IMG/VR virus record: IMGVR_UViG_3300046517_002960
Coordinates: 126,217 to 190,216 of that record
Strand: one strand, 5' to 3'
Origin: a virus
DNA length: 64,000 bases
The notes under the pieces were generated by a model that was not told where the DNA came from, searched no databases, and was given only the letters and a program-made list of their open reading frames with translations. Shown here in pieces: positions 23,347 through 39,903 of the stretch. Numbering within the stretch: position 1 is the first letter of the stretch; the number at the start of each line of letters is the position of its first letter. A program made the position numbers and the translations under genes.

Positions 23347-23745
23347 ATGCCGACAAGAGACTGGTGGGCGACCGAGTGGGATCGTTCAGCTTACGACCGG
23401 CAGCGGTACGAAGCAGCGAAACAGCAGCTCATCGCCCTGCTAGGCGGTAAATGTGCTAGATGCGGAACAACTGAAAACCTCCAGTTCGACCACGTAAATC
23501 GTGAACTCAAGGACTTTGCGATTACGGGCCGGTGGAACCGCAGCCAGGCTGAACTGGAAGCGGAACTAGCGAAGTGCCAGCTACTTTGCCAGCCTCACCA
23601 TCTGGAGAAGACCCGGCAAGAGATCGGTAACGAACACGGAGGCGGTAAAACAGGGATCAGGAAGTGCAAATGCGAACTCTGTCGGAACCGCAGAAGCGAA
23701 CACATGATCGAATATCGGCGTGAGCGTAAGAAGCAAACTACATAG
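23347..23745 (+). CDS. HNH homing endonuclease
   Basis: LGGKCARCG..LQFDHV..KCQLLC..HH; lower GC than its surroundings. Confidence 0.9.
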   Translation: MPTRDWWATEWDRSAYDRQRYEAAKQQLIALLGGKCARCGTTENLQFDHVNRELKDFAITGRWNRSQAELEAELAKCQLLCQPHHLEKTRQEIGNEHGGGKTGIRKCKCELCRNRRSEHMIEYRRERKKQTT

Positions 23746-23815
23746 GAGTGACCCACCGGTTCGGGAACCGCTCTCCAAAAGCGGTAAAAACAGCGTTCGA
23801 CTCGCTGCACTCCTG
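23744..23815 (+). tRNA. tRNA-Trp(CCA)
   Basis: AGGAGTG/CACTCCT; CCGCT-CTCCAAA-AGCGG; T-loop TTCGACT; overlaps the HNH stop. Confidence 0.8.
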
Positions 23816-23985
23816 CGACCGTCAGCCAAGGCGAGAGCCGCGGCAGGCGAATGTCACCGACATTTGAGAACTCCATAGCGTGAGCACCACGACGGGGGCG
23901 CCATCCCCCGTCACCTGGTGCGGTCCCCAGGCGCGATCAGCGGGCGAGTCGCCCCCGTGCCATGGCACCGCACCAATCCGTGCTG

Positions 23986-24025
23986 ACCTGGCCGGGCCGG
24001 TTGTTGCTAGACGGCCCGGCCAGGT
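23986..24025. repeat. 14-bp perfect inverted repeat (hairpin)
   Basis: ACCTGGCCGGGCCG..CGGCCCGGCCAGGT. Confidence 0.6.
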
Positions 24026-24040
24026 ACGGCACGATCCGAT

Positions 24041-24113
24041 GGGGCTGTAGCTCAGCTGGGAGAGCGTCTGCGTGGCACGCAGAAGGCCAGGGGTTCAAGT
24101 CCCCTTAGCTCCA
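24041..24113 (+). tRNA. tRNA-Ala(GGC)
   Basis: GGGGCTG/TAGCTCC; canonical arms. Confidence 0.95.
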
Positions 24114-24207
24114 CGCGGAGAGATCAGGGTGCAAGGTAGCGCGCCGTCGATGGAGGGCGGCGATGCTCCTGGGCAGCGGCCTGGCCGCGGACCACCCTTG
24201 CAGGCAC

Positions 24208-24280
24208 GGGGCTAGGGCGCGGCTGGTAGCGCAACTCGTTCGCACTGAGAAGGTGAGGGGTTCGAATCCCCTTAGCTCCA
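24208..24280 (+). tRNA. tRNA-Ala(CGC)
   Basis: GGGGCTA/TAGCTCC; loop TTCGCAC. Confidence 0.85.
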
Positions 24281-24284
24281 CAAT

Positions 24285-24362
24285 CCAGGGAGATCCGGGG
24301 ATCGCGTCCCGGCAGGGGTCCTGGTGCCCCTGTAGCTCAAGTGCAGAGCGCCTGGAGTACAA
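24285..24362 (+). ncRNA. Circularly permuted tRNA-like element 1
   Basis: CCAGG - variable - T-like arm - CAGGGGT - 6-nt linker - GCCCCTG - D arm - CCTGG. Confidence 0.65.
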
Positions 24363-24434
24363 CGGGACCGAGGAAGGCGGAAATCCGCCTCGTTCGGGGC
24401 GAGGAGAAGCCGGGTTCAACTCCCGGGGTCCCGA
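24363..24434 (+). tRNA. tRNA-Pro(CGG)
   Basis: CGGGACC/GGTCCCG; CCTCG-TTCGGGG-CGAGG. Confidence 0.8.
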
Positions 24435-24450
24435 CTATGCTTTCGATTTA

Positions 24451-24525
24451 CGGGCTGTAGCTCAGTTTGGTCAGAGCATCCGGCTGGGGGCCGGGAGGCC
24501 GCCGTTTCAAATACGGCCAGCCCGA
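24451..24525 (+). tRNA. tRNA-Pro(GGG)
   Basis: CGGGCTG/CAGCCCG; loop CTGGGGG. Confidence 0.9.
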
Positions 24526-24526
24526 C

Positions 24527-24599
24527 GAGGAGGAAGACGCGGTTCGAATCCGCCTGGCGGCTGAGAATGCCAACGGTAGCTCAATGGTAGAGCACCCTC
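24527..24599 (+). ncRNA. Circularly permuted tRNA-like element 2
   Basis: T arm GCGG-TTCGAAT-CCGC precedes D arm GCTC-AATGGTA-GAGC; closed by GAGG/CCTC. Confidence 0.55.
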
Positions 24600-24603
24600 C
24601 GTA

Positions 24604-24676
24604 CGGGGCGTAGCGCAGTTGGCCGCGCGCCTGATTTGGGATCAGGAGGACGTCAGTTCGAGCCTGGCCGCCCCGA
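24604..24676 (+). tRNA. tRNA-Pro(TGG)
   Basis: CGGGGCG/CGCCCCG; CCTGA-TTTGGGA-TCAGG. Confidence 0.9.
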
Positions 24677-24684
24677 CTGCACGA

Positions 24685-24759
24685 GGTCACCTAGCTGAGA
24701 CGGATTAGCGGCTGCCTGAAAAGCAGCAGAGGCAGGGTCGCTACCTGCGGTGACCACCA
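24685..24759 (+). tRNA. tRNA-Phe(GAA), atypical T-loop
   Basis: GGTCACC/GGTGACC-A-CCA; GCTGC-CTGAAAA-GCAGC. Confidence 0.85.
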
Positions 24760-24957
24760 TGGCATGACGGCGGATGGGCGCACGGGCAAACCGGGTCAGC
24801 CATCTTCCGCCTGGCCAGGCGAGTAGCGCTCCGCCTGGTAAGCCAGGCTGCTGCAGCGGCCCGGTCTCATGCCGCCCGGAGACGGGCCTGGTCACACCTG
24901 CGGTCAGCCTCGCAAGGGCGCCTGCCGGTCCCTGCTATCAGGTGGTCTCCGGGACTC

Positions 24958-25030
24958 GCGGATGAGTCCCAAACGGAAGGGTGCCGGCCCTCCAAGCCGG
25001 CTGCTGCGGGTTCGAGTCCCGTCATCCGCT
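24958..25030 (+). tRNA. tRNA-Gly(TCC)
   Basis: GCGGATG/CATCCGC; loop CCTCCAA. Confidence 0.85.
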
Positions 25031-25129
25031 CACGTGGGCTGCCACCGCCTCCCTACTAGGCAGCAGCTGGCCCGGCATACGCGGAGTGACCCCAGCCGGG
25101 GAATAACTGGTCACCAGGGGAGGCACCTC

Positions 25130-25201
25130 AGTCCGGTAGCTCAGCGGCAGAGCGGCGGGCTCTTAACCCGCGCGGCCTCGGTTCGATCCCGAGTCGGACT
25201 A
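25130..25201 (+). tRNA. tRNA-Lys(CTT)
   Basis: AGTCCGG/TCGGACT; GCGGG-CTCTTAA-CCCGC. Confidence 0.9.
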
Positions 25202-25389
25202 CGCAATGGGGGGCTTGTACTGCGGTACTGGCCTTAAACGGTGTCCCGGCTCGGCAATACGCGCGTGTTGCCCTGCACCTGGAGCGCCCCGCCGTGCCCT
25301 GTGCAGGGGCACGAGAACCCGCAGGGACCGTGCGTCAGCTGCGGGCGCCAACGGCTGGCTCGCACGGCCGGCCGGCGGCACTGCACGAC

Positions 25390-25477
25390 GGGCGGGTGGC
25401 GCAGCAGGATGACGCACCGGATTCAAGTCCCGGCGTCCGTAAGGACATTGAGGGTTCAACTCCCTCCTCGCCCACCA
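25390..25477 (+). tRNA. tRNA-Leu(CAA)
   Basis: Long variable arm; loop TTCAAGT; encoded CCA. Confidence 0.85.
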
Positions 25478-25502
25478 TTCTCCGGTCAGCCGGAGAATTC
25501 CA

Positions 25503-25577
25503 TGCGGTATGGGGGAACTGGCAGACCCGCCGGGCTCTGAACCCGGAGTTTTCCTGGTTCGAAGCCAGGTACCGCAG
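25503..25577 (+). tRNA. tRNA-Gln(CTG)
   Basis: TGCGGTA/TACCGCA; CCGGG-CTCTGAA-CCCGG. Confidence 0.9.
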
Positions 25578-25579
25578 CT

Positions 25580-25655
25580 GGAGTTGCTGGATAGCGCATG
25601 GGCAAGGCGCTTAGAGCTGGCCAGCTACCCGTTCGATTCGGGAACGGCAACTCCG
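25580..25655 (+). ncRNA. tRNA-like element without a recognisable anticodon loop
   Basis: GGAGTTG/CAACTCC acceptor; CCCG-TTCGATT-CGGG T arm. Confidence 0.45.
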
Positions 25656-25724
25656 CACAAGGTGTCCGGCGATTTCGCGTAGGAGCCGTCCAGCCTTTAA
25701 CTGGATCGGGGCAACGCGAGCAGT

Positions 25725-25799
25725 GCCCCGGTAGCTCAGGTCGGCCAGAGCGACGGCTTCGTAACCCGTGGGTCCCCAGTTCGATTCTGGGTCGGGGCT
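25725..25799 (+). tRNA. tRNA-Thr(CGT)
   Basis: GCCCCGG/TCGGGGC; loop TTCGTAA. Confidence 0.9.
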
Positions 25800-25872
25800 C
25801 TGTGCCGGTGCTGGCCTCAATAAGCCGGGCCTTCGGGTCACGCGCCCAACCGGGCTGGTACCGGCACTTCAC

Positions 25873-25958
25873 GTCCGGGTGATGGAATCGGAAGACGTGC
25901 TAGCTTGAGGAGCTGGTGCCCCGGAAGGGGCGTGCGGGTTCAAGTCCCGCCTCGGACA
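25873..25958 (+). tRNA. tRNA-Leu(GAG)
   Basis: Long variable arm; CTAGC-TTGAGGA-GCTGG. Confidence 0.9.
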
Positions 25959-25960
25959 CA

Positions 25961-26037
25961 GGGGAAGCAGTAGCTTAACGGACAGAGCACGGCTGATCAC
26001 CGACTGGTGAGGGGTTCGAGTCCCTTCCTGCTCCCCC
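25961..26037 (+). tRNA. Atypical tRNA-Ile(GAT): long acceptor, short anticodon stem
   Basis: GGGGAAGCAG/CTGCTCCCC; CGG-CTGATCA-CCG. Confidence 0.6.
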
Positions 26038-26041
26038 GTTC

Positions 26042-26116
26042 GCCGGCCTAGCTCATCGCAGGCAGAGCGTCCGCCTTGTAAGCGGAGGGTGGCCGGTTTG
26101 AGCCCGGCGGCCGGCT
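26042..26116 (+). tRNA. tRNA-Thr(TGT)
   Basis: GCCGGCC/GGCCGGC; TCCGC-CTTGTAA-GCGGA. Confidence 0.9.
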
Positions 26117-26120
26117 CCGG

Positions 26121-26193
26121 TGGGGACTGGGGTAACTGGCAGCCCGCCGGCCTTTGAAGCCGCGTAGTGCCCGTCCGAATCGGGCGTCCCCAG
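26121..26193 (+). tRNA. tRNA-Gln(TTG)
   Basis: TGGGGAC/GTCCCCA; loop CTTTGAA. Confidence 0.85.
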
Positions 26194-26202
26194 CAATAAC
26201 AC

Positions 26203-26276
26203 GCCCCGGTAGCTCAGCCGGTAGATGCGTCGGCATGGTAAGCCGAAGGTCCGCGGTTCAAATCCGCGTCGGGGCT
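26203..26276 (+). tRNA. tRNA-Thr(GGT)
   Basis: GCCCCGG/TCGGGGC; TCGGC-ATGGTAA-GCCGA. Confidence 0.9.
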
Positions 26277-26277
26277 C

Positions 26278-26623
26278 GAGCCGGCCGGACGGCCGCGGTA
26301 CCTGCACGTCAGGTACTGAGGAAAGTCCGGGCTCCAACGGGCAGGACGGTTGTTAACGGCAACCCGGGGCAACCCGCGGGAAAGCGTCACAGAAAGCAGA
26401 CCGCCCCGGCGACGGGGTAAGGGTGAAACGGCGGTGTAAGAGACCACCAGCGGACCGGGTGACCGGCCCGGCTCGGCAAGCCCCGTCCGGAGCAAGATCG
26501 CAAGGCCGAGGGCGGCCCGCCCGCTGACGCCTGGTGGATCGCACGAGCTCGCCGGCGACGGCAGGCCTAGATGGATGGCCGTCCCCCTGCGGCGGGGACA
26601 GAACCCGGCTTACAGGCCGGCTC
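26278..26623 (+). ncRNA. rnpB: RNase P RNA, bacterial type A
   Basis: GAGGAAAGTCCGGGCTCC (CR-I), ACAGAAA, GGGTGAAACGGCGGTGTAAGAGACCACC, ACAGAACCCGGCTTA (CR-V); P1 GAGCCGGCC/GGCCGGCTC. Confidence 0.97.
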
Positions 26624-26689
26624 AATGCCCGCTCCCCGGAGCGGATGTGCGGCGTAAGACCCGGCCGGCCGCGCGGCCCGGGCAGTCAT

Positions 26690-26762
26690 GCGGACGTGGC
26701 GCAGCTGGTAGCGCACGTGCTTGCCAAGCATGAGGTCGCGGGTTCAAATCCCGTCGTCCGCT
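26690..26762 (+). tRNA. tRNA-Gly(GCC)
   Basis: GCGGACG/CGTCCGC; canonical. Confidence 0.95.
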
Positions 26763-26834
26763 CTGAGATCACGCGGGATACTGGAGTGGCCCTGTCTGAA
26801 CCGCATCCGCGAACAGCGATCGCCGTGATCTCGC

Positions 26835-26918
26835 GCCCCGCTGGCGAAGCTGGAAGACGCGCACGGTTCAGGACCGTGTGTCCGTGAGGACGGGAGGGTT
26901 CAAATCCCTCGTGGGGCA
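26835..26918 (+). tRNA. tRNA-Leu(CAG)
   Basis: CACGG-TTCAGGA-CCGTG; long variable arm. Confidence 0.9.
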
Positions 26919-26923
26919 CTTCA

Positions 26924-27014
26924 GGAGGGTTGGCCCGGAGCTGGCGTACTGGGACCGCACTGCTAATGCGGCAGTCTGGAGACAGGCTCGCGAGTTCGAT
27001 TCTCGCACCTTCCG
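26924..27014 (+). tRNA. tRNA-Ser(GCT)
   Basis: CCGCA-CTGCTAA-TGCGG; long variable arm. Confidence 0.9.
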
Positions 27015-27170
27015 CGAGCAGGACAGGCTCTCCCCGCTGGCGGGCAGGTTACCCGCAGGGAGAGCCGGCCGGCGGCGGTAATCGGCCACCCCACCTGCCC
27101 TAGACGCTCTCCGGAATCCGCACCGGGAAGCGCCAAGCCCGGCGTCCCGGGCACTGCAGATTCTACCCCT

Positions 27171-27261
27171 GGAGGGTTCGCCTAGTGGCCTATGGCGCCG
27201 GCCCGGAAAGCCGGTTGGGACGAAAGTACCCTCGCGAGTTCGACTCTCGCACCCTCCGCCA
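27171..27261 (+). tRNA. tRNA-Ser(GGA)
   Basis: CCGGC-CCGGAAA-GCCGG; encoded CCA. Confidence 0.9.
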
Positions 27262-27296
27262 GCCTGGCCGTCCGGAGAATGGCGGCTGGGCCTGCT

Positions 27297-27383
27297 GGAG
27301 GATTCGCCTAGCGGCCAGGGCAGCCGATTTGAAACCGGCCAGGGGTCTTGCAGCCCTCGCGAGTTCGAGTCTCGCATCCTCCG
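27297..27383 (+). tRNA. tRNA-Ser(TGA)
   Basis: Loop TTTGAAA; long variable arm. Confidence 0.85.
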
Positions 27384-27387
27384 CCCG

Positions 27388-27475
27388 GGAGGGTTCGCCT
27401 AGTGGCCTATGGCGCCGGCTTCGAAACCCGGTTGGGACGAAAGTACCCTCGCGAGTTCGACTCTCGCACCCTCCG
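27388..27475 (+). tRNA. tRNA-Ser(CGA), near copy of Ser(GGA)
   Basis: Identical to 27171 except in the anticodon arm and the 3' tail. Confidence 0.85.
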
Positions 27476-27497
27476 CTTCACACCGTGCTTCACACAT

Positions 27498-27575
27498 GGG
27501 CCGGCAGCGTAGCCCGGTTCTCGCAGCTGGCTGATAACCAGTTTGGCGGAGGTTCAAATCCTCCCCGGCCCACCA
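27498..27575 (+). tRNA. tRNA-Ile(GAT)
   Basis: GCTGG-CTGATAA-CCAGT; encoded CCA. Confidence 0.9.
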
Positions 27576-27576
27576 T

Positions 27577-27653
27577 GGCGAGATAGCTCAGGCTGGCAGA
27601 GCGCCGGACTCATACCCCGGAGGTCGGGATCTCGGTATTCCCTCTCGCTACCA
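27577..27653 (+). tRNA. tRNA-Met(CAT) elongator (or Ile2)
   Basis: GGCGAGA/TCTCGCT-A-CCA; loop CTCATAC; atypical T-loop. Confidence 0.75.
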
Positions 27654-27732
27654 CGGCCCGTAGTTCAGCCTGGCTTAGAACGGCACCCTTATGAAGTGTG
27701 CGTCAGGGGTTCAAATCCCCTCGGGCCCACCA
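27654..27732 (+). tRNA. tRNA-Ile(TAT), C1:C72 mismatch
   Basis: Loop CTTATGA; encoded CCA. Confidence 0.75.
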
Positions 27733-27733
27733 T

Positions 27734-28309
27734 TCAGGAAGCACCGGCTAGCGGCACCTGCCGGGCGTTCCAGGCGCTGACGGCGGACAGCGTGAACCCG
27801 TCCGTGATCTCCCCGGCAGCGATCATCGCGGTGAGCCCGGAAAAGGTCAGCCACCGGATCTCGGTGATCTCCTCGGTGTCGGCCGGCACGGCCTGCATGG
27901 CCGCGGCACCTACCCGGGCCGCGTACATGTGCACCGCGGTCCCGAGGTGCGCGGAGTCCGGATGGACGCAGCCCAGGAATACCAGGTCCAGGGCCGCGGC
28001 GCCGATCTCCTCGATCAGCTCGGCGCGGGCGGTGGTCTCAGGGCAGGGGCCGTGCGCGTAGCCGCGGGGGAAGCCCCATTCCCATTCCTGGGTGGCGTAA
28101 CGCCAGGTCCGGACCAGGGCGGTATGCTCGCCGGTCACCGGCATGACGACCACGCCGGGATGGCCGCTCCCGGAGATGATGCGGTAGTAGCGGCCCTGCC
28201 GTCCGGAGGAGAACCGGACGTGATCATCAAATACGGTGACGAACCGGTTCCGGTAGACGATCTCCTCGGCGATTCTCTCGATCGGCGGCGCGCTGGCAGG
28301 TGCAGTCAT
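27734..28309 (-). CDS. NUDIX hydrolase (ADP-ribose pyrophosphatase-like)
   Basis: GFPRGY..ETTARAELIEEIG Nudix box; RTWRYA. Confidence 0.9.
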   Translation of the reverse strand: MTAPASAPPIERIAEEIVYRNRFVTVFDDHVRFSSGRQGRYYRIISGSGHPGVVVMPVTGEHTALVRTWRYATQEWEWGFPRGYAHGPCPETTARAELIEEIGAAALDLVFLGCVHPDSAHLGTAVHMYAARVGAAAMQAVPADTEEITEIRWLTFSGLTAMIAAGEITDGFTLSAVSAWNARQVPLAGAS

Positions 28310-28387
28310 GATCTTCCGTTCCCGCTCCCTGCCCCTGACAACGTGTCACAGCGAAGATACGTTCAGTGAGTAGCCTTATGTAAGCAG

Positions 28388-28459
28388 GGTCCGCTAGCTC
28401 AACGGCAGAGCATCCGACTTTTAATCGGCTGGTTCAGGGTTCGAGCCCCTGGTGGACCA
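28388..28459 (+). tRNA. tRNA-Lys(TTT)
   Basis: GGTCCGC/GTGGACC; loop CTTTTAA. Confidence 0.9.
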
Positions 28460-28460
28460 C

Positions 28461-28664
28461 TCAGCCCCAGGACACCATCTGCGGGGCCGGGTGCTTGGTC
28501 CAGGTGTCGGCGAGCGCCGGGTGCGCGTGCTTGGTCCAGGTGTCGGCGACGGTCGCGTGATGCGGAGCGGGCGGGGTGCCCCAGGACACCATCGCGGCAC
28601 CGGAGCCCGTGGCAACGGCGGCTGCGAGGACGAGAGCGGCGATCCTGGCCTTGGCGGATTTCAT
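28461..28664 (-). CDS. Secreted 67-aa peptide with repeated ADTWTKH and MVSWG motifs
   Basis: GAAGG SD; Sec-type signal MKSAKARIAALVLAAAVA; internal DNA repeats. Confidence 0.7.
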   Translation of the reverse strand: MKSAKARIAALVLAAAVATGSGAAMVSWGTPPAPHHATVADTWTKHAHPALADTWTKHPAPQMVSWG

Positions 28665-28702
28665 AGCGTTACCTTCCCCGTTACTAGGTGTTCTCATAAC
28701 TG

Positions 28703-28730
28703 AGCGTACAGACCGGTCACAGCGTGTCAA
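28703..28730 (-). promoter_or_regulatory. Promoter for the peptide gene
   Basis: TTGACA-N16-TACGCT on the minus strand. Confidence 0.6.
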
Positions 28731-28734
28731 TAGC

Positions 28735-28763
28735 TTGCGCGGCACTTTCCGTAGCCGTAAGGT
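28735..28763 (+). promoter_or_regulatory. Promoter for the second tRNA block
   Basis: TTGCGC-N17-TAAGGT ending 9 nt before tRNA-Arg. Confidence 0.5.
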
Positions 28764-28771
28764 GACAGGAT

Positions 28772-28844
28772 GCGCCTGTAGCTCAAGGGGATAGAGTCTC
28801 GCCTTCTAAGCGAGGGGATGGGGGTTCGATGCCTCCCGGGCGCG
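28772..28844 (+). tRNA. tRNA-Arg(TCT)
   Basis: GCGCCTG/CGGGCGC; loop CTTCTAA. Confidence 0.9.
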
Positions 28845-28975
28845 CTGGGGACCCCGGCCTGCGAGGCGGCCCGTGAGCCGTCGCCGGCAGATCCGGCACC
28901 GGGGTCCTCAACTAGTCTCAGCTGAGATATCGCGTAGTAGCCTCTTGAGACATCGGTCATTGCTATACTGAAAAC

Positions 28976-29470
28976 ATGACCATGCCCACGCCGCACTTCT
29001 GCGACTGTGGATGTGGTGAGAAAACAGCTGTTGCCCCGAGGAATAATACGAAGCGGGGATACGTCAAGGGCTTGTCGTTCCGGTTCGTCGGACGGCATCA
29101 TGCCTGGAAAGGCGACGAGGCCAGCTATCGTGTCTTGCACACAGCTCTGAACCTGCACTACCCGAAGTCAGGCGTGTGCGAGGAGTGCGGCGCGGAAGCA
29201 GAGACCGAGTACTCACTGATTCATGGCCGTCAAGTGTCTCGGCGGCGCGAGGATTACAGGGAGCTCTGCAAACCCTGTCACCATGGTTACGACACGGGCG
29301 GGGAGCGCAGCCTGAACGCTAAGCTGACGGAAGCGAACGTGCGTGATCTCAGAGTGCGCTTCGATGACGGGCAAGGCGAGCCTATTGAAGTTCTTGCTCG
29401 CGAGTACGGCGTTTCTCCCGCGGCGGCTTACCGGGCTGCGACGCGCAAGTCCTGGCGTCACGTCGCTTGA
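28976..29470 (+). CDS. HNH-type endonuclease with C-terminal HTH, probably leaderless
   Basis: CDCGCG..WKGD..Y..LH..CEECG..DYRELCKPCH; TGcTATACT extended -10 just upstream. Confidence 0.85.
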   Translation: MTMPTPHFCDCGCGEKTAVAPRNNTKRGYVKGLSFRFVGRHHAWKGDEASYRVLHTALNLHYPKSGVCEECGAEAETEYSLIHGRQVSRRREDYRELCKPCHHGYDTGGERSLNAKLTEANVRDLRVRFDDGQGEPIEVLAREYGVSPAAAYRAATRKSWRHVA

Positions 29471-29506
29471 CGGATGTACCTGAAGATTGCTTCTGAACGC
29501 TTACAT

Positions 29507-29584
29507 GGTCCTGCAGGCCAGCCAGGAGTGGCCGTCTGCCCCTCAAGCAGGAGATCGCGGGTTCGAATCCCGCCAGGACTACCA
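29507..29584 (+). tRNA. tRNA-Glu(CTC)
   Basis: Loop CCCTCAA; encoded CCA. Confidence 0.9.
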
Positions 29585-29585
29585 T

Positions 29586-29660
29586 GGCCCCATAGTGCTA
29601 GCGGTCCAGGCCGCCTGCCTTTCAAGCAGGAGATCACGGGTTCGAATCCCGTTGGGGCTA
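29586..29660 (+). tRNA. tRNA-Glu(TTC)
   Basis: CCTGC-CTTTCAA-GCAGG. Confidence 0.9.
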
Positions 29661-29674
29661 CGGTGTAAATGCGA

Positions 29675-29746
29675 CGCGGAGGGTGCTAGGTCAACCAGCC
29701 AGGCTCATAACCTCGGCAAACGCGGGTTCAAATCCCGCCTCCGCTA
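29675..29746 (+). tRNA. Initiator-like tRNA-fMet(CAT)
   Basis: CGCGGAG/CTCCGCT with C1 mismatch; loop CTCATAA; lacks the full 3 G-C anticodon pairs. Confidence 0.7.
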
Positions 29747-29750
29747 CTAA

Positions 29751-29821
29751 GGTGCCCTGGAGCGTTTCCGGCTGACTACCGGTCGTCGCCCCGGGTTCGT
29801 CGCCGGGATCAGGGCACCCCA
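29751..29821 (+). ncRNA. D-armless tRNA-like element (GAC loop) ending in CCA
   Basis: GGTGCCCTG/CAGGGCACC; CCGG-CTGACTA-CCGG; CCCGG-GTTCGTCG-CCGGG. Confidence 0.5.
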
Positions 29822-29822
29822 G

Positions 29823-29894
29823 TCCCCCATAGCTCAATGGCAGTAGCGCCCGGCCGTTAACCGGTGGATCTTGGTTCGAGTCCAGGTGGGGGAG
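29823..29894 (+). tRNA. tRNA-Asn(GTT)
   Basis: TCCCCCA/TGGGGGA; loop CCGTTAA. Confidence 0.9.
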
Positions 29895-29907
29895 CGCAGA
29901 AACACAA

Positions 29908-29981
29908 GGTGGCGTAACTCAGCAGGTCAGAGTGCTGGACTGTCTATCCGGAAGTCGCGGGTTCGAATCCCGTCGTCACCG
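29908..29981 (+). tRNA. tRNA-Asp(GTC)
   Basis: GGTGGCG/CGTCACC; loop CTGTCTA. Confidence 0.9.
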
Positions 29982-30094
29982 CTAGCACCCAGTCCCTGGT
30001 GCTTGCCCGGAAGGTCTTCCGCACACTGCGCGCGGCAGCGGAAGCGCCTGGCCGGGGAACCCGCGACAGCGTAACAGCGGCGGATGGGACACAC

Positions 30095-30168
30095 GGTCGC
30101 TTAGCTCAGTTCGGGAGAGCGTCGTCCTGACGCGACGAAGGCCACTGGTTCAATCCCAGTAGCGACCA
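30095..30168 (+). tRNA. tRNA-Val(GAC)
   Basis: TCGTC-CTGACGC-GACGA. Confidence 0.9.
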
Positions 30169-30182
30169 CGCAGTACCAGCAA

Positions 30183-30255
30183 GTCCCCGTAGCTCAACGG
30201 ATAGAGCTGCTGCCTACGGAGCAGTGCGTTGCAGGTTCGAGTCCTGCCGGGGATG
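30183..30255 (+). tRNA. tRNA-Arg(ACG)
   Basis: GCTGC-CTACGGA-GCAGT. Confidence 0.9.
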
Positions 30256-30324
30256 CCAGCGGAGAGGTATCGGCAGTACCGTAAAGCCAGGTCACGTGCC
30301 CGAGGACCTGCGCCTCTCCGTCAA

Positions 30325-30400
30325 GGGCGGTTAGCTCAGCGGGAGAGCGCTGGGTCCACACCCCGGGACATTTGCGCCGGTTCGATCCCGGCACCGCCTA
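30325..30400 (+). tRNA. tRNA-Val(CAC)
   Basis: GGGCGGT/ACCGCCT; loop TCCACAC. Confidence 0.85.
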
Positions 30401-30402
30401 CT

Positions 30403-30474
30403 GTGGCCGTAGCTCAATGGTCAGAGCAACGGGCCGTGAACCCGAATATGCGCGTTCAATTCGCGTCGGCCACC
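30403..30474 (+). tRNA. tRNA-His(GTG), no encoded G-1
   Basis: GTGGCCG/CGGCCAC-C; loop CCGTGAA. Confidence 0.85.
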
Positions 30475-30476
30475 CC

Positions 30477-30560
30477 GGCAGGTTACCCAAGCGGACAAAG
30501 GGAGCTGTCTGTAAAACAGTCGGCATTACGCCTGCGCTGGTTCGAACCCAGCACCTGCCA
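30477..30560 (+). tRNA. tRNA-Tyr(GTA)
   Basis: GCTGT-CTGTAAA-ACAGT; long variable arm. Confidence 0.9.
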
Positions 30561-30561
30561 C

Positions 30562-30981
30562 ATGAACACGAAAACGAGAATCGGCCTGGACTACTGGCAG
30601 GTCTGCAGCCACTGGCCGTACTTCGGCGAGCTGGCGGCGGCCCTGCGGGCGGCAGGCCATGAGGTGCACGTCATCTCGGCGGTCGGCCGGAAATCCGCCG
30701 GCACCGTCGCGCCCGGGCTAGCTGAGCTCGGTATCGCCGTTGACGGCGTGCACGAGCGGCTGTTCCGCCATCCGCGGGAGTCGCCGCAGCTGAAGCTGGC
30801 CGCGTGCCGGGAACTGGGCATCGGGGTCTTCTACGACGACCGGCAGGACGTGACCGACCTGCTGAACGCGAACGGGATCCTGGCCCTGCGGGTGCCGCGG
30901 CGCCAGGCCGGGCTGTCGGACACTGAGGGAGAACGGCGGGGCTCGCCGCCGCGGGGTGATCGTGACCCGGCAGCCGTCTAA
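30562..30981 (+). CDS. HAD-superfamily-like protein (degenerate DxD)
   Basis: RIGLDYW..GHEVHVISA..KLAACRELGIGVFYDDR. Confidence 0.65.
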   Translation: MNTKTRIGLDYWQVCSHWPYFGELAAALRAAGHEVHVISAVGRKSAGTVAPGLAELGIAVDGVHERLFRHPRESPQLKLAACRELGIGVFYDDRQDVTDLLNANGILALRVPRRQAGLSDTEGERRGSPPRGDRDPAAV

Positions 30982-31046
30982 GGTCGTGACCCGGCTGAAC
31001 GAGAAAGACCCGCCAGCCTCAGGGCACAGCGGGCCGCAGTAAGCAG

Positions 31047-31120
31047 GACCCCATAGCTCAGCGGATAGAGCACCGCCCTCCGGAGGCGGGTTGTCGCAGG
31101 TTCGAATCCTGCTGGGGCCA
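31047..31120 (+). tRNA. tRNA-Arg(CCG)
   Basis: CCGCC-CTCCGGA-GGCGG. Confidence 0.9.
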
Positions 31121-31179
31121 CTGGCTGGCAGGTGAGCAGGCTGACACCGCCTTCGGGCTCAGCCCCCTGCCGGCCGTAC

Positions 31180-31255
31180 CGCCGAGTGACCGAGCTGGCT
31201 AGGTGAACGCCTGCAAAGCGTTTTGACACGGGTTCAAGTCCCGTCTCGGCGTCCA
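31180..31255 (+). tRNA. tRNA-Cys(GCA)
   Basis: AACGC-CTGCAAA-GCGTT; U73; encoded CCA. Confidence 0.9.
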
Positions 31256-31256
31256 C

Positions 31257-31330
31257 GACCCTGTAGCTCAGCCGGATAGAGCAGGCGCCCCCTAAGCGCT
31301 ATGTCGCGGGTTCGAATCCCCCCAGGGCCA
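31257..31330 (+). tRNA. tRNA-Arg(CCT)
   Basis: GGCGC-CCCCTAA-GCGCT. Confidence 0.85.
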
Positions 31331-31344
31331 CGTATGATGAGGAC

Positions 31345-38093: not shown

Positions 38094-39195
38094 TCACCCC
38101 CCGGGCACGCTGGGTGACTGGCTGCCGGCCTGCCGCGCGAACAGCCCGGCGTAGGCGGCTTCCCACTGCTGCCAGTGGTCCTCGATCAGGTGCCGGCGGG
38201 CCATCTCCCGGGCCGCCTCGCCCATCTTGGCGCGCAGCGCGTCGTCGCCGGCCAGCTCGGACAGGTACTTCAGCCATTCGTGGTCGCGCTTCACCAGGAA
38301 GCCGTCGACCCCGTGGGTGATCACGGCCCGGTACGGCTCGATGTCGCTGGCGACGGTCGGGATCCCGCGGGCGCCGTACTCGATCGCCTTAATTGCCGAT
38401 TTACTTTTCGAAAACGAGGTGGGCCACAGCGGGGCCAGGCCGATGTCGAAGTTGATCCCGGCGAAGTACTTCTCCGGGTGCTTGTAAACCGGCACCCAGC
38501 CGATGTAGGACATCCGGTCGTACGGCACGCCCTCGTCCCCGAAGGTCTCCCGGTAATCCGAGCCGTTCAGCTGCAGGTCCCAGCCCGGAAACCGCTTGAG
38601 GAACCGGTGGACCGGCGATGCCACCTGGCCGATGTCGACGCCATGGCTCGCGCCGCCCTGCCAGCCGACCCGCGGCCGTTTCCGGCCGGGCCGCGGCAGC
38701 CGGGTAGCCCAGCCCGGGACGCAGTTAGGCAGCACGGCAACCCGGTCGTGCCCGGCTACCTCGCGCATTACCCGCGCCAGCGGCTCGGTGGTGACGGTAA
38801 CCAGGTCGGCGGTCTCGGCGGCGTGCTGGGTCGCATCCCGGATCTCCGGGCGGCCGTACAGGTGGTAGGCGTTCCAGTTCTCGGCCGTCACGTTCCACAG
38901 GTCGTCATCGAGCTCGTAGACCAAGCGGCTGAACGGGCCGCGGGCGCGCCGCCACACATGCAGCCCGTCGTGCTTGTTCCACCGCTGCGCCACGATCACG
39001 TCATAGCCCGCCAGGTCGCCCAGGGTGACCGAGACCGGGTGACCGTCATCGCCGGCGTCGGTGAAATGCACCTCGTGCCCGCCGTACCGGGCCAGCGCGT
39101 CCAGGGGTGCTTTCATGCGATACCAAGCCTAAAGCGCACCCCGAGCCGCCATCGTGCCCGGCGAAAATCTTCAAGGGTGCAGGGTTCACCGGCAT
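38094..39195 (-). CDS. GT-B (GT4-like) glycosyltransferase interrupted by a 7-nt TTA-containing gap (39132-39126); about 364 aa when joined
   Basis: GAAGGAG SD; MPVNPAPLKIFAGHDGGSGCA + WYRMKAPL..; DIGLAPL..KSAIKAIEYGARGIP.VASD. Confidence 0.85.
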
Positions 39196-39308
39196 GTTAC
39201 CGCTCCTTCCGCTCTACACATCAACTTGGCATCCCGGATGCCGTGCATCTGCAGCCAGCTGTAGGCACACCCTGAACCGCCATCATGTCCAGCGAAGATT
39301 CTAATCAG
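39186..39308 (-). other. 40-codon ORF beginning with a synonymously recoded copy of the GT N-terminus
   Basis: IRIFAGHDGGSGCAY versus LKIFAGHDGGSGCA; GAGGGAG upstream; start codon CTG or ATT uncertain. Confidence 0.55.
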
Positions 39309-39333: not shown

Positions 39334-39576
39334 ATGAGTGCCATGCCAGGTGATAACAGGGCCAGGGACGCCTACGGCGACTGGTGCGCGCAGATGGGCG
39401 GCGTTGATGCCGATGGCCGGGTACTGCGCCGCTGGGAGCAGCTGAACGGCCAGGAGCGGGCCGCGTGGGAGACCGTGATCGAGAACGCCGGGCTGGCCGC
39501 CGCCCGGGCCGCCGACCGGGTGAACCAGGCGGCGGCCGGGGCGCCGGGCTGGCCGCCGCCCGCGGAACTGCGCTAG
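39334..39576 (+). CDS. Hypothetical protein
   Basis: ARDAYGDW..WEQL..ERAAWE; high GC3. Confidence 0.6.
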   Translation: MSAMPGDNRARDAYGDWCAQMGGVDADGRVLRRWEQLNGQERAAWETVIENAGLAAARAADRVNQAAAGAPGWPPPAELR

Positions 39577-39579
39577 CCC

Positions 39580-39903
39580 TCACGGCCGCTCCCGGTCGGC
39601 CAGCGCGGCCAGCCGCGCCCGCTCGCGCTGCAGGTACCAGATGGCCTTGGCCAGGTCGGTGTCCGCGTCCGCGCCGGGCTTGAGCCCGTGCCGCCAGGCG
39701 TACTTGACGGCGCTGCCGACATTGAACGACATCGCCTCGGTGACGTCGATGCACTCGATCTGCTCGCCGCAGCCGTGGCACTGCGCGCCGAGGCTGCCAT
39801 AGTGCGCCGGGTGGCTGACCTGCTCGCCCTGCCCGGGCTGGCCCGTGTCGTCCGTGACGGACGTGACGGGCTGCAGCATCGTCGCGGGCCGCGGATCGTT
39901 CAT
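39580..39903 (-). CDS. DUF3310-family protein
   Basis: VSHPAHY..IECID..FNVGSAVKY.WR..DLAKAIWYL. Confidence 0.85.
   Translation of the reverse strand: MNDPRPATMLQPVTSVTDDTGQPGQGEQVSHPAHYGSLGAQCHGCGEQIECIDVTEAMSFNVGSAVKYAWRHGLKPGADADTDLAKAIWYLQRERARLAALADRERP

Follow-up and report, generated by a model that had tools for sequence, protein, structure and literature searches.

A glycosyltransferase gene of a phage with a high G+C content is broken near its 5' end by seven bases, a TTA codon followed by a single spacer base and an alanine codon, and comparison with related genes shows that these bases are the 3' end of a mobile cassette comprised of an HNH-AP2 nuclease gene, a new leader and start codon, a copied N-terminal segment and the TTA-led gap itself. 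This origin of the gap is shown by comparison and adds to a first-pass annotation of the DNA, which had missed that the gap ends a homing-endonuclease cassette with a duplicated gene start. A ribosome that stalled at the UUA and hopped over 7 nt would produce an enzyme of 364 amino acids, and such a hop is the reading favored here, with moderate confidence; its support is comparative only, without protein or ribosome data from this gene or from any relative. The window, i.e., the whole stretch of DNA analyzed, forms the final 64 kb of an IMG/VR virus record that is 190 kb long and has a G+C content of 70.9%. The virus is regarded as a phage of a soil actinobacterium, with no host assigned and the host's identity inferred at most. 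The region had no match among 50,697 GenBank phages by blastn, and a scan of genome contigs detected only distant relatives, mostly in MAGs, of which one (L083, ungapped) could be classified and from which no host could be assigned.

The broken gene and its relatives

On the minus strand, positions 39135-39126 read GCT TTA G GCT. The first GCT (39135-39133) follows TCG GGG TGC; the TTA occupies 39132-39130, the lone G 39129, and the second GCT 39128-39126, after which come TGG TAT CGC and an ATG at 39116. A zero-frame ORF of 49 amino acids (39195..39046, minus strand) has the SD sequence GGAAGGAG 7 nt ahead of its ATG, begins MPVNPAPLKIFAGHDGGSGCALGLV and, after MPVNPAPLKIFAGHDGGSGCA, continues LGLVSHE, while the body-frame ORF (39116..38094, minus strand) encodes 340 amino acids. 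The two frames are offset by +1, as (39195-39116) mod 3 = 1, and the body frame is interrupted by a TAG at 39131-39129, so that any change of frame must fall at or after 39129. Three claims of the first-pass annotation have held: that a perfect GCT-TTA-G-GCT bypass site with a 7-nt gap lies at 39126-39135, which as a matter of sequence is borne out here and in contigs of other runs; that an SD and the ATG at 39195 open a frame that resumes at WYRMKAPL past the gap, as the ORFs confirm; and that decoding of the UUA ends after 49 amino acids (ORF 39046..39195). The features of the region, all on the minus strand, are as follows.

39261..39305 (-): remnant of the original gene 5' end (ATT AGA ATC TTC ..., translated IRIFAGHDGGSGCAY), from translation and relatives
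39209..39260 (-): junction between remnant and leader, 52 nt, from blastn synteny with L004 and L013
39196..39208 (-): cassette leader with SD GGAAGGAG; leader motif shared with gapped loci
39133..39195 (-): new N-terminal coding segment MPVNPAPLKIFAGHDGGSGCA, 21 codons, the last being the take-off GCT at 39135-39133, from the ORF and relatives
39135..39181 (-): conserved hairpin, from RNAalifold and covariation
39126..39132 (-): 7-nt coding gap, with TTA 39132-39130, spacer G 39129 and landing GCT 39128-39126, from homolog comparison
39046..39132 (-): zero-frame read-through past the TTA, from the ORF; a 49-aa dead-end peptide upon normal TTA decoding
38094..39125 (-): glycosyltransferase body, TGG TAT CGC plus 340 codons from ATG 39116 and the stop codon, from Pfam and homologs

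In four other runs on soil or rhizosphere, belonging to four studies, Logan contigs carry 39121-39137 without a difference or indel, and the seven bases are therefore real DNA rather than an error of assembly. Inserts of the same kind recur at this site in more than 15 independent assemblies.

The 340-aa ORF matches Pfam Glycos_transf_1 at 34.8 bits (cut-off 26.4), and 739 homologs of the glycosyltransferase were collected. An AlphaFold (AF2) model of the full-length homolog P0049 (pLDDT 88) has the two-Rossmann GT-B fold, with the GT4 enzymes BshA, MshA and PimA as its best PDB matches (E 1e-14 to 1e-15); on the Pfam domain and the fold of this homolog model, the gene product is predicted to be a GT4-type GT-B glycosyltransferase. 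In the P0049 model strand beta-1 spans residues 2-7, the Gly loop residues 8-11, and helix alpha-1 starts at residue 12, which places the gap in the first turn of alpha-1, after beta-1 and the Gly loop. The 364 residues of the hop product would be drawn from 343 codons of the body frame and from the first 21 codons, which lie one base out of frame with it. The operon holds several glycosyltransferases.

Among the 119 closest protein clusters, 52 read M-K-I-F-A-G-H-D-G-G-S-G-C-A-W-Y-R-M unbroken and one (P0087) has two additional residues, GCALAYYRM; 11 begin in an alternative frame across HDGGSGC (MTAAPGA.FYRM), and about 55 begin at or past the Met of YRM. With so many homolog clusters truncated or in an alternative frame, the break is not peculiar to this phage, and about half of the enzyme's closest homologs have been cut short or given a wrong start by gene callers. 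The N-termini of P0033, P0062, P0096 and P0106 (e.g., MRLTWYRM, MLLTWYRM, MCVLFRM) look like alternative-frame readings of further gap types at this site.

For 80 loci retrieved from IMG/VR, the distance from the Cys codon to the W/Y codon was measured, and about 90 related genes were compared overall. Exactly one codon separates GC from W (..GGSGC / WYR) in the ungapped relatives, which number 60 loci. The frame is broken at this site in 13 of roughly 76 related loci, and in 12 of those 13 the last conserved codon is followed directly, in the zero frame, by TTA. Eight have 7 additional nucleotides (the window, L004, L013, L045, L046, L047, L053 and L075; GCT TTA G/A GCT/GCC), two have 5 (L066, GCT TTA CT; L054, TCC TGT CC) and three have 1 (L009, L012 and L014; GCN or GGC, then TTT TTA C). 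A further two, L059 and L065, have 6 nt and remain in frame (GCY TTA GCC), and TTA leads every such in-frame locus as well. A metagenome scan for the TTA-led pattern added L119 (GCT TTA C GCC), L120, L126 (GCT TTA CT), L127 (GCC TTA GCT) and L129 (GCA TTA GCA). Pattern scans of IMG/VR turned up no other loci of the TTA-led or +1 class, nor any gap there that is led by a stop codon (GCN TAR).

TTA is otherwise all but missing from these genes: across 75 related gene bodies it makes up 3 of the 24,186 codons read in frame, and it does not occur in the body of the window's gene. That a codon this rare elsewhere should lead the gap in 12 of the 13 broken loci is therefore not chance. The gaps hold on to TTA and a cognate landing codon while their remaining bases vary. 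The take-off and landing codons, those on either side of the presumed jump, are GCT/GCT (as in the window), GCT/GCC, GCC/GCC, GCC/GCT, GCA/GCA and TCC/TCC, and nearly all of the relatives' pairs can be read by one tRNA; the exceptions are L066 and L126, with an ACT landing codon that matches at only two of three positions. GCT is the usual take-off codon although it makes up 8.7% of the Ala codons in these genes, and GCG, at 42% of their Ala codons, is absent as either a take-off or a landing codon. This recurrence of TTA-led gaps with matched flanking codons is shown by the comparison. In the 1-nt class, TTT TTA C, a tRNA-Phe would re-pair perfectly at +1 beside the hungry TTA, and inside every 7-nt gap the +1 frame holds a TAG or TAA.

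Two side observations concern relatives. The frame-breaking 5-nt gap of L054 (1995-2003; TCC TGT CC TGG) has no TTA; it lies behind the same cassette leader, its TCC/TCC codons are matched, and its TGT is the minor Cys codon (20 vs. 169 TGC). In several ungapped relatives (L003, L006, and L017 near position 2001) and in the window's remnant (39305-39303), no ATG, GTG or TTG precedes K/R-I-F-A-G-H, and an ATT lies about 7-8 nt past a GGAGG-like SD (K-I-R-I-F); it is possible, on inspection of the sequence only, that ATT serves as a start codon in the clade of L003, L006, L017 and the window's remnant.

The cassette, its hairpin and selection on the gene

On the gene tree (a quick IQ-TREE) the gaps are scattered, with at least four changes on well-supported branches for the 7-nt class alone, and near-identical genes differ in gap state. 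The gapless L070 and the 7-nt-gapped L075 share 98% identity to either side of 661 nt that are inserted in L075, and this insert stops exactly at the gap. Its opposite strand encodes a protein of 178 aa that joins an HNH endonuclease to a DNA-binding AP2 domain (phrog_99, E 2e-38; Pfam HNH_3 and AP2); the rest of the insert comprises, in order, a leader with an SD, a short uORF whose TGA overlaps the GTG start, a fresh 13-codon copy, and GCT TTA A GCC. The original gene start is kept upstream as the truncated remnant MRVLACHDGGTG. Homologous nucleases occupy the equivalent place in L013 and L066, and the three nuclease-bearing loci, all with an intact nuclease, belong to three different clades and have two gap lengths. 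All 11 loci with gaps of 5-7 nt have a leader motif, GGTGA-N3-5-GCACC, vs. 2 of 61 others (Fisher p 3e-11). The loci behind this test are not independent: the cassette is treated as one homologous unit spread by homing, and gapped loci are not counted as independent samples.

Two marks of the cassette, a nuclease beside the gap and an element-borne copy of the replaced segment, were sought in the window. By blastn the window matches L013 on both sides of the region and has 52 nt where L013 has approximately 1.4 kb, including an intact HNH-AP2 nuclease gene; homology to L004 and L013 resumes at 39208. A tblastn search with the L075 nuclease found no homolog in the 190-kb genome, and the first mark is thus absent from the window. 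The second is present, in that the remnant IRIFAGHDGGSGCAY lies at 39305-39261 and its replacement copy at 39171-39133. The frame of the remnant enters unrelated sequence and stops at a TGA at 39188-39186 (translation LIRIFAGHDGGSGCAYSWLQ...CR*); such upstream gene-start remnants are found in the window, L013 and L075. With the nuclease lost and the remnant, leader and gap kept, the cassette of the window is therefore a decayed derivative. The proposed history is that a free-standing HNH-AP2 homing-endonuclease cassette would have invaded the glycosyltransferase gene at its Gly-rich N-terminal motif, supplying an SD and start codon, a substitute for the opening 13-14 codons and, at the 3' junction, a short insert led by TTA, and that the nuclease gene would later have been deleted in this phage while the leader, copied segment and 7-nt insert stayed. 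The insert probably also disrupts the target site of the nuclease, which would leave a carrier immune to its own nuclease; this role is inferred, and there are no cleavage data.

Several other features of the locus may be noted. In L017 (1351-2076, plus strand) a different HNH gene (HHKNGIRNDN..NLELW) sits at the same spot in the glycosyltransferase gene with a seamless, gap-free junction, and a leader-type remnant, DLAPVKIFAGHDGGT, lies upstream; from this distinct, gap-free insertion it follows that the site coding for HDGGSGC is a hot spot for homing elements. L021 and L022 have a remnant N-terminus 390 nt upstream. In the leaders of L045, L054, L066, L075, L019 and L040, a uORF of 7-9 codons lies about 40 nt before the glycosyltransferase start, and its TGA overlaps the GTG (GTGA), an arrangement that raises the possibility, inferred from sequence alone, of translational coupling; in the window, L004 and L013 one additional base joins the uORF in frame to the enzyme (MPVNPAPL-). 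Upstream of the remnant in the window are an 80-aa ORF of unknown family (39334-39576, plus strand) and a DUF3310 gene (39580-39903, minus strand), and a 370-nt stretch containing both the 80-aa ORF and the remnant is absent from L004. In three of the four other runs (X2, X4 and X5) the contigs end inside 39166-39256, between the copies of the N-terminal segment, which is the interval where relatives hold the nuclease gene. These breaks could reflect population variation in cassette content, or merely low depth.

A hairpin is conserved at the gapped loci. In the window T-GCACCC-T (39181-39174) pairs with G-GGGTGC-G (39142-39135); the 5' arm spans the ancestral start codon, and the 3' arm encodes Gly-Cys, its last base being the first of the take-off codon. 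Measured between the innermost pair the loop is 31 nt long, and between the GCACCC and GGGTGC hexamers 33 nt. The pairing GCACC(C/T)/GGGTGC is found in all gapped loci that have the leader, and RNAalifold predicts the helix (7-8 bp) unaided from 14 gapped loci. Over those 14 loci 98.9% of cells are paired, none of 500 shuffles did as well, and slid registers gave 23-59%. Two pairs show compensatory change, namely C-G to U-A in L126 and an innermost pair that is G-C, A-U or U-G according to the start codon. The hexamers pair across 32-33 nt in every gapped locus (10 of 10) and, across 33-34 nt, in 4 of 50 other loci. Single-sequence folds near the site were no better than shuffles (z +0.55 to -1.6). 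Conservation of the hairpin is thus shown, and its function is not: it might aid the hop, a role that has been proposed for the structures of gene 60 and phiHau3, or might instead control initiation, and its geometry is no proof of a role in hopping, which is uncertain because the 3' arm sits inside the ribosome at take-off. Two other candidate pairings, a downstream GGGGUGC/GCACCCC helix and one between the gap and the start region, were dropped because neither is conserved in relatives.

Selection has continued to act on both pieces of the broken gene. Not one of the 13 broken loci has a second lesion in either piece. The window and L004, both gapped and 79% identical, differ across 12 conserved N-terminal codons by seven synonymous changes and one conservative change (K/R), and over the same 12 codons the window and L013 differ by five synonymous changes and no non-synonymous one. 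In the body, the median NG86 dN/dS is 0.49 for gapped-gapped pairs vs. 0.53 for ungapped-ungapped pairs of the same clade. The absolute values (~0.5) are high, being inflated by GC3 bias, and only the comparison of gapped with ungapped genes is informative. It gives no sign of relaxed constraint on gapped genes. Purifying selection acts on the N-terminal piece as well as on the body.

The proposed hop and its rivals

The mechanism proposed here is inferred, as are its efficiency and its dependence on tRNA level. Initiation would occur at ATG 39195, and translation would proceed until GCU (Ala21) occupies the P site and UUA the A site. UUA would require a scarce, bldA-type tRNA-Leu(UAA) that the phage's own tRNA genes do not supply, and the ribosome would stall. 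The tRNA cluster of the window (23744-31331) has 38 genes, of 39 in the whole genome, and covers most amino acids; Leu-CAA, Leu-GAG, Leu-CAG and Ala-GGC are present, and no tRNA-Leu(UAA) was found among the 39 genes. Scarcity of this tRNA in the host, which is unknown, is inferred solely from codon usage. In the stalled ribosome the peptidyl-tRNA-Ala would unpair, the mRNA would slide by 7 nt, and the tRNA would re-pair on the second GCU with decoding restarting at UGG, to give the canonical junction ..GGSGCA-WYRM.. and the predicted junction peptide IFAGHDGGSGCAWYR. Normal decoding of the UUA would produce the 49-aa dead-end peptide (IFAGHDGGSGCALGLVSHESTPGR being the sequence without recoding), from which it follows that the yield of enzyme should drop as tRNA-Leu(UAA) rises.

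A single rule accommodates all of the variants of 1, 5, 6 and 7 nt, namely that a P-site tRNA faced with UUA in the A site leaves its codon and pairs anew with the nearest cognate codon downstream. By class, tRNA-Phe would move from UUU to the overlapping UUU (1 nt), and tRNA-Ala from GCU or GCC to GCU or GCC, or from GCA to GCA (6 or 7 nt); in L054, tRNA-Ser would move from UCC to UCC. A plain +1 slip at the take-off codon was considered and rejected, as it runs into the TAG or TAA of the +1 frame. The first-pass annotation had held that matched-codon hopping, and no single slip, explains such sites; at the glycosyltransferase site the comparison supports this, without experimental proof. It had named an alignment of homologs across GGSGCA-WYR as a check, and the single codon between GC and W in the 60 ungapped loci supports the claim. 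As refuting it would have counted homologs with residues that match the gap, which are met only in the few in-frame 6-nt relatives (Ala-Leu-Ala) and are not considered a refutation because these keep the Ala-TTA-Ala grammar, or synthesis of the enzyme from ATG 39116, against which weigh the lack of an SD there and the lack of a start codon at that place in L075. It is important to emphasize the weak points of the hop. The 6-nt in-frame relatives suggest that an extra Leu-Ala can be tolerated, so that a Leu-containing product is conceivable; L066 and L126 would land on ACT, with a two-of-three match; and the gap of L054 has no TTA.

One rival, which is unlikely, dispenses with the hop: UUA would be read as Leu and the ribosome would then shift by +1 (at TTA_G or GGC_T), for an enzyme with two more residues (..GCA-L-A-WYRM or ..GCA-L-G-WYRM; junctions IFAGHDGGSGCALAWYR or ..CALGWYR). 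In its favor, L059, L065, L127, L129 and the protein P0087 (GCALAYYRM) hold exactly Leu-Ala here, which indicates that the loop may tolerate it, and the site is the first helix turn beside the loop. Against it, no 7-nt variant (TTA G GCT, TTA A GCC, TTA C GCC) has a slippery sequence past the TTA, and a tRNA-Leu(UAA) on UUA cannot re-pair on UAG, UAA or UAC. It also leaves unexplained both the 5-nt class and the match of take-off and landing codons, and it depends on the very tRNA that is rare, the use of TTA being sensible only as a stall.

Also unlikely is that the gene is dead, the 7 nt being the scar of a homing endonuclease in a dispensable accessory gene that no longer yields the full-length enzyme. 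With several glycosyltransferase genes in the operon, loss of this one might be tolerated, and the cassette is selfish DNA whose homing could spread a broken allele. This view is opposed by the unrelaxed constraint (median dN/dS 0.49 vs. 0.53), by the almost exclusively synonymous differences at the 12 N-terminal codons between gapped relatives that are 20% diverged, by the want of a second lesion in 13 broken loci, and by the preservation of TTA and a cognate landing codon.

Production of the enzyme from ATG 39116 (340 aa), with the 49-aa ORF as a separate or regulatory leader peptide, is very unlikely. Gene callers do pick this start (P0001 and about 50 truncated homologs), and an ATG or GTG stands at the equivalent codon in most gapped loci. 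In no locus, however, is there an SD within 18 nt upstream; L075 has ATC at this codon, and its next start in the body frame is about 25 codons downstream; and M, I or V occupies the position in ungapped genes as well. By the P0049 model, such a product is predicted to be without three elements of the N-terminal Rossmann domain, namely the core strand beta-1, the invariant HDGGSGC loop and the opening turn of alpha-1, and the upstream HDGGSGC codons would have no reason to be conserved. An error of sequencing or assembly, or a minority variant, for which only the metagenomic origin and low depth (2-6x in other runs) speak, is all but excluded by the identical contigs in four other runs of four studies and the similar inserts in more than 15 independent assemblies.

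Comparison with known recoding systems

To our knowledge, programmed bypassing has not been demonstrated experimentally beyond T4 gene 60, some yeast mitochondria and, in part, the terminase of one Streptomyces phage. If the hop occurs, the site studied here would be a much shorter natural case, and it comes with an allelic series of 1, 5, 6 and 7 nt at one position, with various landing codons and with a hairpin variant that shows compensatory change. L075 and L070 supply nearly identical genes with and without the gap, and the partner nuclease is available intact. The site would thereby permit tests of the minimal requirements for a hop, of a rare codon as a switch at the level of tRNA, and of bypass gaps as marks of immunity to selfish nucleases. 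A bolder reading, which we offer tentatively and would not yet expect to stand, is that soil actinophages carry mobile "micro-bypass" cassettes, each a homing endonuclease with a new gene start and a UUA-led gap of 1-7 nt. If that were true, the gap would be an immunity mark against the nuclease on DNA and a sensor of tRNA-Leu(UAA) on mRNA; glycosylation of the virion, like packaging in the same phage, would be switched by the developmental state of a Streptomyces-like host; and one rule, re-pairing of the P-site tRNA at the next cognate codon, would serve many genes.

Shifts by +1 and short tRNA hops at hungry or stop codons are well known, as in prfB (CUU-UGA-C), yeast Ty1 (CUU-AGG-C) and the stop-codon hops of E. 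coli; a review is available (PMC5009743). The present site resembles them in that a slow A-site codon would let the P-site tRNA re-pair nearby, and the 1-nt relatives (TTT TTA C) are a textbook case. It differs in its distance, since in the window the 7 nt pass a stop in the +1 frame, which makes for a hop and not a slip.

A closer likeness in the trigger is found in Streptomyces phage phiHau3, where UUA-led coding gaps in the large terminase gene, and also in two prophages, were tested experimentally (RNA Biol 2023, PMC10732093) after gaps of this type had first been hypothesized in 2013 (reference 45 of PMC10732093). The phiHau3 terminase has two 10-nt UUA-led inserts; in E. coli, the construct called g6/7 (UAA) gave a junction peptide by mass spectrometry, and recoding was no lower with a stop introduced into the +1 frame (PMC10732093). 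Common to the two systems are a short, frame-breaking insert with UUA first in a high-GC actinophage that otherwise avoids TTA, flanks that are contiguous in relatives, a landing codon that adjoins the resume codon, and an early stop after normal UUA decoding. For phiHau3 a 5' stem-loop was proposed; whether the hairpin conserved here plays such a part is uncertain. The gap here is 7 nt rather than 10 and lies in a non-essential glycosyltransferase gene rather than in a terminase gene, and a single site presents a series of gaps of 1, 5, 6 and 7 nt. The linkage to a homing-endonuclease cassette with a duplicated gene start is not described in PMC10732093. The phiHau3 work has experiments behind it, whereas none exist for the glycosyltransferase gap.

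The architecture of the cassette recalls T4 gene 60, in which the 50-nt bypass lies inside the element of the HNH homing endonuclease MobA (bioRxiv 10.1101/2022.08.31.505936); experiments on MobA mobility and nicking are credited there to its reference 19. The MobA nuclease is often lost with the bypass retained, and the gap is thought to shield its carrier from nicking (bioRxiv 10.1101/2022.08.31.505936). In both systems a nuclease is combined with a new N-terminal extension, with a copy, carried by the element, of the segment that it replaces, and with a gap at the 3' end; take-off and landing codons are matched; near-identical genomes are found with and without the element (here L075 and L070); and the nuclease can be lost while the gap is kept, as in the window. 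The differences are that the gap here is 7 nt instead of 50, that the host gene is not split into two subunits, that the stall would be due to a rare sense codon where gene 60 uses a stop codon with a take-off hairpin, and that the nuclease is of the HNH-AP2 type, on the opposite strand and, as far as tested, unrelated to MobA. The combination is a trigger of the phiHau3 type, with the hop itself still an inference, residing within a cassette of the MobA type.
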